The notes below the pieces were generated by a model that searched no databases, was not told the DNA's origin, and saw only the letters and a list, made by a program, of their open reading frames with translations. Below, in pieces: positions 8,690 through 63,335 of a stretch of 64,000 nucleotides of DNA. Both the position numbers and the translations under genes were made by a program. Within the stretch, counting starts at the first letter, position 1. Each line of letters begins with the position of its first letter. Origin of the DNA: Flaccisagitta enflata (taxonomy: Eukaryota); NCBI GenBank assembly GCA_965153355.1, contig OZ231126.1, positions 2,790,001 through 2,854,000 on the forward strand, in the 5' to 3' direction.

Positions 8690-9740
8690 CTGATATATTC
8701 ATTAGATACTGTATCCTTCGTCATCTGTTGTCTGATATATTTATCAGATATTGTAACCTCAGTTGTCTGTTGTCTGATATATTTATTAGATATGGTATCT
8801 TTGGTCGTCTGTTATCTGATACATGCATTAGATATTGTATCCTTCATCGTCTGTTGTCTGATATATTCATTAGATATTGTAACCTTTGTTGTCTGTTATC
8901 TGATACATGCATTAGATATTGTATCCTTCATCGTCTGTTGTCTGATATATTCATTAGATATTGTAACCTTTGTTGTCTGTTGTCTGATACATGCATTAGA
9001 TATTGTATCCTCCGTCGTCTGTTTTCTGATATATCTGATATATCTGATATATTCATTAGATATTGTAACCTTCGTTGTCTGTTGTCTGATATATTCATTA
9101 GATATTGTATCCTTTGTCGTCTGTTGTCTGATACATGCATTAGATATTGTATCCTCCGTCGTCTGTTGTCTGATATATCTATTAGATATTGTAACCTTCG
9201 TTGTCTGTTGTCTGATATATTCATTAGATATTGTATCCTTCGTCGTCTGTTGTCTGATACATGCATTAGATATTGTATCCTTCATCGTCTGTTGTCTGAT
9301 ACATGCATTAGATATTGTATCCTCCGTTGTCTGTTGTCTGATATATCTGATATATCTGATATATTCATTAGATATTGTATCCTTCGTCGTCTGTTGTCTG
9401 ATATATTCATTAGATATTGTAACCTTTGTCGTCTGTTGTCTGATACATGCATTAGATATTGTATCCTCCGTCGTCTGTTGTCTGATATATCTATTAGATA
9501 TTGTAACCTTTGTCGTCTGTTGTCTGATATATTCATTAGATATTGTAACCTTTGTCGTCTGTTGTCTGATACATGCATTAGATATTGTATCCTCCGTCGT
9601 CTGTTGTCTGATACATGCATTAGATATTGTAACCTTTGTCGTCTGTTGTCTGATATATTCATTAGATATTGTAACCTTTGTCGTCTGTTGTCTGATACAT
9701 GCATTAGATATTGTATCCTTCGTCGTCTGTTGTCTGATAT
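8690..9740. repeat. 42-bp minisatellite, ~25 copies (degenerate copies also ~8210-8350)
   Basis: Unit CTGTTGTCTGATATATTCATTAGATATTGTA(A/T)CCTT(T/C)GTCGT; 14-aa periodicity in ORF track. Confidence 0.95.
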
Positions 9741-11484
9741 CTGCTCCGTCGAGTCTTGTCTCTGCTGCGCGTCTCGGCTGCTGTGGAACGCCGCTTCCGC
9801 TGCGCAGCTCTCTCTCTCTCTCTCTCTCTCTCTCTCTCTCTCTCTCTCTCTCTCTCTCTCTCTCTCTCTCTCTCTCTCTCTCTCTCTCTCTCTCTCTCTC
9901 TCTCTTTCTCTCTTTCAAAATGAGAAAAAGAAAGAAAAAAATTGTGCCCGATATAAAGTTATTTTGCACGCACAGAAAATCCAGCTGACGGAGGAAAAGG
10001 GAAAAGGCGCTAGAAAATTCAAATTGTAAATCTATTTGATTCGTTGGTTGGTTGGTTTATTGGTTGGTTGGTTGGTTGGTTGGTTAGGGGTTTGACTGGA
10101 TTGGTAGGTTAGTCTTTGTTTGTCTGTACGCCTAGATTTGTCGGTCCATCCTTCCATCCGTCCGTACGTAACATTATTAAAGGTCCGCGGCAATATTCAG
10201 TTACCGTTGTTGTTGTCTTATTTGGAGGGGTTTGAGTAGTTTGTGTGTATGAGGGATTGTAGGTAAAACTGGGTATTTTTCTTATTTCTCCAGTCCAACC
10301 GTCCTTTGTAGAGCTTAATTCGAGATGCATGCTGTTAAAGTATTTTTCTCAATACACTCGAAATAAATATTTGCCTAAACAATATTCTTTTCATTTAGTT
10401 TTTTCTTTTTTTTTTTTTCTAAATTTTCAGAAAAGCGCTATGACTTGCCAGCTGGTCATTAACAAACTGGTTGTGTCGAACACCAATTTCAGCTATTTCA
10501 CTCTGACTGACTGTCTGCCTGTTTGTAAGTCTGTCCGTCGAGTTTGTCTGTCTGTCTGTCTGTCTGTCTGCCTGTCTGTCTATCTCTCTCTCTCTCTCTC
10601 TCTCTCTCTCTTTTTCTCTCTCTCATCTAATTGGCGTCGCACTTGATATATATCGGACATTGTAAATGTGAATGTGAAATTGTGAATGCCACTTTAGAAT
10701 TTTACGCTCACAACCGTGAATGATTTAACTGCCTTTTTTATCTCGGCAAAAATGTTTTCCCGGTGAGTCTGTAATTTTTACTAGATTAGGTCTTATCGCA
10801 TTCAGTTATAAATATGTTACTTTTAAAATGTAGTAGGAAAAAAAATTTATTACAGATTAAAAAAGAAATCAGCGCTCGCAGCTCGCTGGTGTTATCTTTC
10901 AAAGATTTTGATTCAACCGAAGGAAATTATGTTTTCCACTGACATCAACAGAGAGATATTCTTTTTTCCAGGGCTGCGTTAGTTCGTTCATAGTATTTTG
11001 AACTAGCCTTTTTTTTCATTTCATTTATAGCCTTCATGTGACTCTATAATCCGTCATGTTGATCTGTCCGTCCGTTGGCCTGTCGGTCGGTCATTCTGAA
11101 ACGCTTTTCTTTTTCTATTCGGGTAATTTTTACATCACTAATCCTGCCCAAATGCTTGATCGGCCTATTTGGCTATTTCATCACCACCCCTGCCCACCAG
11201 CAGGCGACTTGGGGAGCCGCATGTCTTCTATTTATTTCATTGCTTACCAATTCGCTATCAACATCTTTTTCGTGTGCGTAAATCATCTATCACTCATGGA
11301 CAGACTGACTATCTGACTGCTTGACTGACTTTGTTTTTTTGTGTGACGATATCTTATGGCCGGTTTATTTGTTGTATCTGTCCTAACTTTTTATGGCGCT
11401 CGCGTTAACAAAGACTAACAAAGACTAACAAATACTATCATCTCAATCCAACATTCAATTCTAATGAGTGCGTGTGTGATTATA

Positions 11485-11895
11485 TGAGAGAGAGAGAGAG
11501 AGAGAGAGAGAGAGAGAGAGAGAGAGAGAGAGAGAGAGAGAGAGAGAGAGAGAGAGAGAGAGAGACAGAGACAGAGAGAGAGAGAGAGAGAGAGAGAGAG
11601 AGAGAGAGAGAGAGAGAGAGAGAGAGAGAGAGAGAGAGAGAGAGAGAGAGAGAGAGAGAGAGAGAGAGAGAGAGAGAGAGAGAGAGAGAGAGAGAGAGAG
11701 AGAGAGAGAGAGACAGAGAGAGAGAGAGAGAGAGAGAGAGAGAGAGAGAGAGAGAGAGAGAGAGAGAGAGAGAGACAGAGAGAGACAGAGCGACAGACAG
11801 AGAGAGCCAGACAGAGCGACAGACAGAGAGAGCGACAGACAAACAGACAGACAGACAGACAGACAGACAGACAGGGACAGAGACAGAGACAGACG
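11485..11895. repeat. (GA)n/(GACA)n microsatellite
   Basis: Direct inspection. Confidence 0.95.
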
Positions 11896-12224
11896 GGCGT
11901 AGAGACAGAAAGAGCATGGTAGGGGGATTGGGGTCAAGAAGGGATGGTGGTAAAGGGTGTATGCAATGTTCTTTTTTTTTATGTAGATGGCGTCGTTGCG
12001 GTCGTTGGTGACTGGCGTGAATCACCAGGAAGAAATAGCATAGTCGCAAACGGAACTTAATCGAGGCTTCTGATTGGTTCCCCCGTTTCAAAGGGGACAC
12101 TCAAATCCAGCCTCCTCATTGGCTCCGATGTGAGACATGACGATGCTAAATGTTCCCAGTAATCCACACCTGAACTTTTTGTTTTCTTTTCCTTTTTTGC
12201 CTTTGTATTTTTTTTTTCTTTTTT

Positions 12225-62067: not shown

Positions 62068-62346
62068 TTTGATTTTCTTCCCTACGACGTGTCGCGTTGT
62101 ATTACAAAATCTATGATTTTCTTCCCTATAAAGCAAAAGAACAGTATCATGTAGGTTTAAATATTGTTAAATTGAGTTGTAGTAATAATATTATACTTCT
62201 TGGTACTACCAAAAGTGCTAAATCTTCAAAAAAAATTTTTTTCTTTTTTTCAAGCTTTTGATTTTTTCCCCATCTCCAAACCCTTTGATTTTATTCTCCC
62301 CCTCCCCCCACCGGGGGGAAGAAATACTCAACTTTATACACGCCTG
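62068..62346. mobile_element. One-ended copy of the hAT MITE at 24896-25220
   Basis: Colinear with 24920-25220; ends CTCAACTTTATACACGCCTG. Confidence 0.8.
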
Positions 62347-62379
62347 CAGTGAAACATCAATACTCTTTTATTCATTCAG

Positions 62380-62565
62380 ACGACGATCGTCTAAAGCCCT
62401 CCAAGACGCTTTACTACGTTGTTGCCTCGGTATTGCTGACTCTGGCTCTGGCGTTTTTGTTGATGTTCTTCCTTTATCCAAGATCCTTCAGAATTTCACA
62501 GCAAATTGGAAAAGATTATTGCGGACCTCATCTTTATCCTTACTCACTCTCGATTGATACTAAAG
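62380..62565 (+). CDS. TMEM106: TMEM106-family gene, coding exon 4 (transmembrane helix, start of lumenal domain); gene continues downstream
   Basis: DDDRLKPSKTLYYVVASVLLTLALAFLLMFFLYPRSF vs TMEM106B [37 protein letters not shown]; acceptor TTCATTCAG|, donor AAAG|GTAAAA. Confidence 0.92.
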
Positions 62566-63335
62566 GTAAAATAGTTCTAAGCCTCATGTATGCATTTAAA
62601 ATTGGCAAAGATTATTGTAGACCTCATCTTTATCCGTACTCACTCTCGATTGATACAAAAGGTAAAATAGTCCTAGGCCTCATATATGGAAAAGATTATT
62701 GCGGACCTCATCTTTATCCTTACTCTCGATTGATACTAAAGGTAAAATAGTTCTAAGCCTCATGTATGCATTCAAAATTGGCAAAGACTATTGCGGACCT
62801 CATCTATATCCTTACTCACTCTCAATTGATACACAAGGTGAAATAGTCCTAAGCCTCATGTATGCATTTACAATTGGCAAATACTATTGCGGACCTCATC
62901 TTTATCCTTACTCTTGATTGATACTAAAGGTAAAAGAGTTCTAAGCCTCATGTACTGTGTATGCATTTCAAATGGGCAAAGATTATTGTGGACCTCGTCT
63001 TTATCCTAACTCTCGATTGATACTAAAGGTAAAATAGTTCTAAGCCTCATGTATGCATTTAAAATTGGCAAAGACTATTGCGGACCTCATCTATATCCTT
63101 ACTCTCAATTGATACGAAAGGTGAAATAGTTCTAGGCCTCATGTATGCATTTCAAATTGGAAATGATTATTGTGGAACTCATCTTTATCCGTACTCACTC
63201 TCGATTGATACAATAGGTGAAATAGCTCTAAGCCTCATGTATGCATTTAAAATTGGCAAAGACTATTGCGGACCTCATCTATATCCTTACTCACTCTCAA
63301 TTGATACGAAAGGTGAAATAGTTCTAGGCCTCATT
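62503..63335 (+). repeat. ~96-bp tandem array (9 copies) spanning exon 4 end and 5' splice site
   Basis: Each unit encodes IGKDYCGPHLYPYSLSIDTK + AG|GT(A/G)AAA + ~30 nt intron. Confidence 0.93.

Follow-up and report, generated by a model that had tools for sequence, protein, structure and literature searches.

Minisatellites whose repeat unit contains an exon-intron boundary have been described in amphioxus and in humans. The amphioxus 'mirage' minisatellites of Adh3, the globin genes BflGb6 and BflGb9, troponin C and PGBD5 are tandem duplications of exon-intron boundaries at 5' and 3' ends; in the accessible text of the two reports, the units measured 10-160 bp, copy number varied between haplotypes or gene copies, normal splicing was kept (PMC3087553, PMC3902484) and the mechanism of origin was called unclear (PMC3087553). 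Human junction VNTRs (variable numbers of tandem repeats) have been reported from F7 intron 7 (37 bp), IFI 6-16, CBS intron 13, lamin B2 and PDGF: as far as the accessible part of this source goes, unit 1 spans the donor, the most upstream site is chosen and the downstream pseudo-donors are mostly silent (PMC1557585). Here, arrays of this kind were analysed in a 64,000-nucleotide stretch of the Flaccisagitta enflata genome (the window: contig C1, positions 2,790,001-2,854,000, 2.8 Mb from the contig end; genome of 794 Mb in 9 contigs), in which two consecutive introns of a TMEM106 gene each start with a minisatellite.

With a probability of about 0.6, we consider these arrays to be mirages, i.e. 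DNA-level tandem duplications of an exon edge together with its splice site, which affect donors and acceptors alike, are re-templated and are driven by recombination. Each unit consists of genomic sequence, an exon edge with the intron next to it; the array-bearing introns of the sample are old, and the copies decay at the splice signal and at the amino-acid level.

The TMEM106 gene lies on the + strand of the window, with its ATG at 61258, and was identified by Pfam matches to PF21002 in exon 1 (E 7.2e-7) and to PF07092 in exon 3 (E 1.4e-6). Coding exon 1 (61258..61468, +) runs into a 38-bp minisatellite (61440..62066, +; 16.2 copies, arranged as alternating 76-bp dimers): unit 1 consists of the last 29 nt of the exon and 9 nt of intron 1 (61469-62379), with the donor CAG/GTTAGT at 61468/61469 (the slash marks the exon end), and the GT was intact in 10 of the 15 downstream copies. 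Exon 2 (62380..62565, +), which carries the transmembrane segment and is an open frame between two Pfam-supported exons, likewise runs into a 96-bp minisatellite (62503..63334, +; 8.9 copies in the window, with three further units approximately 0.6-0.9 kb beyond its end). Here, unit 1 joins the last 64 nt of the exon to 32 nt of intron 2 (from 62566), the donor is AAG/GTAAAA at 62565/62566, and the GT was intact in 11/11 copies. The two introns measure 0.9 and 2.5 kb, and their acceptors lie outside the arrays, in non-array sequence hundreds of bases further downstream. The initial annotation had seen in both introns a minisatellite whose first unit is the exon end with its donor, and the coordinates and Pfam-supported exons bear this out. 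A homologue search with TMEM106 exon 2 was empty (weak evidence).

RNA support for TMEM106 splicing consisted of a single low-depth metatranscriptome contig (160 nt, depth 2.5, 10 differing letters), covering intron 2 only, which joins 62565 to exon 3 across a GT..AG intron. This contig was assigned to the donor of unit 1 of the 96-bp array because it extends upstream of the array; a second RNA run had no coverage of these exons. A second, intact TMEM106 copy was found on contig C3: 27 of the 29 exon differences fall at third codon positions (4/4 in exon 1, 12/14 in exon 2). The C3 copy has both arrays with differing copy numbers, the 38-bp array having approximately 2.5 units there versus approximately 16 in C1; the arrays are therefore real and predate that gene duplication. 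The two genes belong to a segmental duplication of at least 24 kb (window 53,200 onward versus C3:19.445-19.470 Mb) and are both under purifying selection. Many of the kinesin, myosin and kinase matches considered below likewise occurred in near-identical pairs.

The frequency of junction arrays was estimated from kinesin, myosin, chaperonin, dynein and kinase genes, which were located by Pfam search and of which a part was analysed. Profiles made from the genome's own exons, used with a spliced aligner, gave 484 modelled introns in 110 gene regions on 9 contigs; the kinase genes found were mostly poor in introns (23 introns). Intron positions recurred among paralogues, which supports the gene models, these being predictions without RNA check. 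A junction was scored as duplicated when a complex window across it was found again at most 700 nt away. The raw counts were 27 donors and 16 acceptors; four of the donor calls (one mis-modelled intron that was an acceptor array, two chance matches and one marginal case) and two of the acceptor calls were dropped by eye. After curation, 32/484 introns (~7%, or roughly 1/15) had a junction-spanning duplication, at 23 donors and 14 acceptors, in 20 of the 110 gene regions. Recurrence beyond one gene, which had been anticipated from the window, was thus found genome-wide and above background when compared with transposon-free intron sequence. The accompanying idea of donor specificity was not upheld: acceptors were affected too, and the difference between 23 and 14 was not significant (p=0.19; bootstrap ratio 1.26, 0.8-2.3), also after merging of paralogues (19 vs 12, p=0.28).

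Both ends of the same intron were duplicated in five cases versus 0.67 expected. Affected introns made up 14/85 of those within 10 Mb of contig ends and 18/399 of those elsewhere, and a copy was present at 10/88 donors with an adjoining microsatellite versus 17/396 other donors. In the 484 introns, microsatellites occupied ~20% of positions in the zone 20-220 nt past the donor and 15-20% in the zone 40-180 nt before the acceptor, versus ~10% deeper in. Outside this sample, an OATP/SLCO gene (PF03137, E 6e-11) lies 7.5-12.2 kb past the window end and carries five junction arrays in its first introns. With exon edges assigned by visual inspection, three of these are at donors (79, 197 and 78 bp) and two at acceptors (74 and 77 bp); the arrays were also present in the C3 duplicate. 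Several sampled loci were striking individually. A myosin acceptor array at C2:86,802,237 has seven copies of ~190 bp in two sequence types; 11/13 variants are synonymous and the acceptor is altered in six copies. A kinesin-3-like gene has donor arrays (157 and 106 bp, at C1:361,742 and 362,719) on consecutive modelled introns plus an acceptor copy, and the intron start in the last of its donor copies is different and resembles the consensus. At C5:27,256,524, a 23-bp purine-rich array of ~98 units crosses a myosin exon edge on both sides.

Enrichment over intronic background was measured in 30-nt windows, with 18 donor and 15 acceptor events observed, and its size depends on the background chosen. 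The expectation was 26.1 events without masking (1.3x). It fell to 18.4 (1.8x) once copies belonging to the junction arrays themselves were masked, and to 10.4 (3.2x) after additional masking of sequence present at two or more other loci; for events with 3+ copies, the corresponding ratios were 2.2, 4.2 and 8.5. The last background (134 kb of complex, transposon-free intron) is held to be the right one, because transposon-borne arrays cannot span a junction and because a local control agrees with it: duplications that lay within 105 nt of a junction and did not span it numbered only 3 + 2 in 327 introns. Against this background, the 18 donor and 15 acceptor events compare with 5.0 and 5.4 expected, and for 3+ copies, 11 and 6 events compare with 1.1 and 0.9. 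Across estimates versus transposon-free intron, the enrichment was 3.2-3.7x, rising to 8.5-12.9x for 3+ copies and 6x for young copies; the gene bootstrap for both ends was wide (3.5x, 1.8-6.8). GC content does not explain the enrichment. The bias expected from a conserved exon copy was 1.4-1.6x by simulation, and allowing 1.6x for it left p values of 3e-4, and 5e-8 for 3+ copies (Poisson, events taken as independent). A cruder background (20-nt windows, all intron) gave ratios of 1.5-1.9 for donors (27/484) and 0.8-1.0 for acceptors (16/484); it was set aside because it includes transposon-borne arrays (153/442 events), matches of low complexity and copies that belong to the junction arrays themselves, and was kept as the low end. 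When it was stratified by adjacent microsatellites, the donor excess fell to 27 vs 19.8 expected (13 vs 5.2 for 3+ copies).

The template of the copies was addressed by alignment of up to three copies for each of 43 candidate junctions. All carried intronic flanks and none a spliced exon-exon junction, so mature mRNA was not the template, and the suggestion of reverse-transcriptase templating from spliced RNA was not supported. The idea of mRNA-derived copies had also come up from matches ending a few bases into the intron, and was ruled out by the same alignments. Variation among the copies of one array is the informative class, since it should be codon-blind if all copies descend from one founder. 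Among long units, 71/131 variants were synonymous versus 38.0 expected from base composition (z 6.8, omega 0.35); the excess was present in 10/13 arrays and held for units that are not multiples of 3. Short units had little synonymous bias (13/46 vs 10.2 expected). Functional exon sequence therefore served as the template again and again, rather than a single founding copy. At TMEM106, the C3 exon end differs by five bases, each of which was recovered among the 96-bp copies of C1; at three of these positions the C1 copies have both states. Recombination is the most likely route of this re-templating. Whether the template was one allele in its successive states (omega of 0.5 or more) or other alleles and paralogues (lower omega) is weakly resolved.

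According to the mechanism we propose, homologous recombination (unequal exchange or gene conversion) would pair in the conserved exon, and the exchange would end out of register at the intron edge, a rapidly changing and microsatellite-rich sequence in which homology falls off; adjacent microsatellites may help such out-of-register events at the edge of exon homology. Arrays would then persist since only the exon-contiguous site is used, for which there is published precedent and, here, one RNA contig. The copies would be close to neutral because only the splice site contiguous with the exon body is used, while the exon unit itself could never be lost. More tentatively, and at somewhat below even odds, exon edges may be tandem-duplication hot spots (3- to 8-fold over intron interior) where recombination copies functional exon alleles into the intron and back, so that arrays would be reservoirs of exon variants, general in polymorphic animal genomes and not peculiar to amphioxus.

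Several observations weigh against the recombination reading or its enrichment. The masked background was designed after cruder ones had shown small effects, and the 1.3x unmasked and 1.8x junction-masked ratios were judged to fall within the simulated conservation bias. Intron-only windows gave 8/412 donors vs 11.0 expected and 4/412 acceptors vs 11.6, on a background without those masks. Myosins account for 21/32 matches, with events common to paralogues, and the gene models are self-predicted. Counted by gene, the excess near contig ends is marginal (7/20 vs 13/90, p=0.05). Support for the inter-allelic step is weak, since the omega of 0.35 falls below the limit of 0.5 for re-templating from the same allele only at p=0.02. 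Polarity was mixed, with divergence increasing with distance in 10/13 arrays but not in the two acceptor arrays that have the longest units. The three arrays inspected for microhomology at breakpoints had none.

A rival explanation does without any targeting: tandem duplication would strike evenly across a genome prone to repeats, and arrays at junctions would merely look enriched since their exon copy is frozen by selection and undeletable. It fits a window of which 27% is tandem repeat, the low unmasked ratio, the intron-only windows without excess and the shrinkage of the donor excess on microsatellite stratification. We nevertheless regard it as unlikely, given the enrichment over transposon-free intron and the few non-spanning duplications beside junctions; taken alone, it yields neither the synonymous bias among copies nor the five introns duplicated at both ends. 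Less probable still is a transcription- or splicing-coupled process (R-loop, paused polymerase, or repair templated by unspliced nascent RNA) that duplicates exon edges at both ends, a widened form of the idea in the initial annotation. Junction enrichment as such agrees with it, young copies lean to donors (14 vs 6), and long donor units often include 60-79 nt of exon (11/26 donor cases, a pattern noticed after the fact). It is opposed by the involvement of acceptors, by the lack of spliced junctions in the copies and by synonymous mosaics that point to recombination; moreover, most matches were in myosin genes, many of them muscle-type, for which germline transcription is presumably unlikely, and only 1/43 introns of chaperonin genes had a junction duplication.

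Selection for donor arrays because they provide recursive-splicing sites, back-up donors or in-frame isoforms appears very improbable. The unbroken GT of the 96-bp copies, of which use of unit 2 would add 32 residues in frame, and eight AG/G sites in the 38-bp copies with acceptor scores of 1.4-5.1 speak in its favour. However, the excess GT conservation that the initial annotation had named as a test was not seen: in a copy set that contains some chance matches, GT was kept at 157/182 positions vs 370/455 in the flanks (p=0.16), and in the 38-bp copies conservation at +1/+2 was 0.80/0.87 vs a mean of 0.88. The ratio of nonsynonymous to synonymous differences between donor copies and exon (pN/pS) was 0.47, as expected of neutral copies beside an exon drifting at synonymous sites, and the 38-bp array differs sixteen-odd units to 2.5 between the two gene copies. 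Recursive splicing needs a conserved polypyrimidine acceptor fused to the donor, in very long introns. An AG/GT inside the intron is common to both situations, but here the introns measure 0.9 and 2.5 kb, the motifs decay, and acceptor scores are mixed in the 38-bp copies and weak in the 96-bp copies (-0.9 to 0.7 for their AG sites). Least probable of all is that the arrays are scars or intermediates of intron gain through tandem duplication of AG/GT-bearing exon sequence, a mechanism that is published (PMC3443670) and, in the accessible text, was proposed for mirages too (PMC3087553). A duplicated segment with AG/GT is the common feature; in the published scheme, as far as the accessible text describes it, exonic duplication creates the intron (PMC3443670). 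Both splice sites of such a new intron would lie in the duplicated segment. Here, by contrast, the unit lies across a junction that already exists, and the far end of the intron is its own, as the TMEM106 acceptors exemplify. Sharing with array-free paralogues was equally common for array-bearing introns (17/32) and for the remaining ones (227/452; p=0.86), so a tie to intron gain was not supported.

Three further arrays of the window had been proposed to start at donor-like sites. The arrays exist; a link to any exon was not found in Pfam, homologue or ab initio scans. The 42-bp minisatellite (8682..9740, strand not assigned) was found at one locus only and has a weak GA or GT donor-like site on the minus strand; the 12-bp low-complexity array (17774..18135, strand not assigned) adjoins a dispersed repeat and also has a weak site. 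Scored with a matrix trained on this genome, these sites reached 1.4 and 0.8, i.e. the 17th and 15th percentiles of modelled donors. The 32-bp minisatellite (22709..23178, +), likewise found at one locus only, with a decayed sister at 23474-23628, has units with AGG/GCAAGG or AGG/GTAAGG, and the GT form scored 5.1 (70th percentile); judged from its sequence, it is a plausible candidate donor array, with no exon attached. Weak donor-like sites are expected by chance, because a GT, GC or GA site scoring >2 on either strand was present in 40% of 279 array units from sampled loci and the window holds 40 arrays with a period of at least 10 and 3+ copies. A Pfam scan of six frames flanking the 42- and 32-bp arrays gave nothing above cut-off, and none of the six adjoined the 12-bp array; a homologue search with the flank of the 32-bp array was empty (weak evidence); and an ab initio exon scan of the window, at a strict threshold, showed no convincing exon beside any of the three. 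The C3 duplicate block, which starts near 53 kb of the window, was of no help for arrays at 8-23 kb. GA and GC donors are thus unsupported, because the three arrays are tied to no exon, and non-canonical donors found no support in the 484 models either (477 GT, 6 GC and 1 doubtful GA, with an aligner that penalised GC and GA). Arrays of 37 and 87 bp at 54277-55132 and 55569-55828 contain a motif that also occurs in a dispersed repeat; both are conserved on C3 in the duplicate block, and no exon tie was found.

Elsewhere in the window, a 297-codon open frame with polyglutamine (5880-6773, +) had no Pfam match above cut-off; its N-terminal stretch recalls, as we take it, CHTOP. Endonuclease and reverse-transcriptase-like frames at 28664-31449 (+), interrupted by a stop near 30178, presumably belong to a LINE-type (long interspersed nuclear element) retroelement, and a long polyglutamine frame at 575-2536 (-) resembles, in our assumption, a retroelement ORF1.

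A mirage frequency of ~7% of sampled introns turns anecdotes into a testable data set, which could separate donor from acceptor effects and recombination from transcription, and could address the choice among many identical splice sites. Should the synonymous bias hold up, it demonstrates that functional exons and their intronic copies exchange sequence. Junction arrays can also mislead gene annotation and read mapping.

The arrays had been put forward as the best candidate for an undescribed system; judging by the accessible text of these sources, the class is already published, as amphioxus mirages (PMC3087553) and human junction VNTRs (PMC1557585). What is new here is a frequency estimate, an enrichment test and a mechanistic lead on this known class: literature searches, which were incomplete and left most subscription papers uncovered, returned, as judged by titles and the opening lines of abstracts, no genome-wide enrichment test of junction-spanning minisatellites and no report of synonymous bias among copies. 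As in human F7, unit 1 spans the donor, and the first donor of the 96-bp array was used in one RNA contig; unlike the human junction VNTRs, a handful on the donor side in the accessible account, the arrays occur here at both ends, with up to five per gene. Shared with the amphioxus mirages are boundary-spanning units at donors and acceptors, the involvement of several genes, and a copy number that differs between gene copies (here C1 and C3). The amphioxus accounts, in their accessible text, concern single loci, whereas the present one adds, for another genome, a frequency of 32/484 introns, an enrichment test and a synonymous bias.

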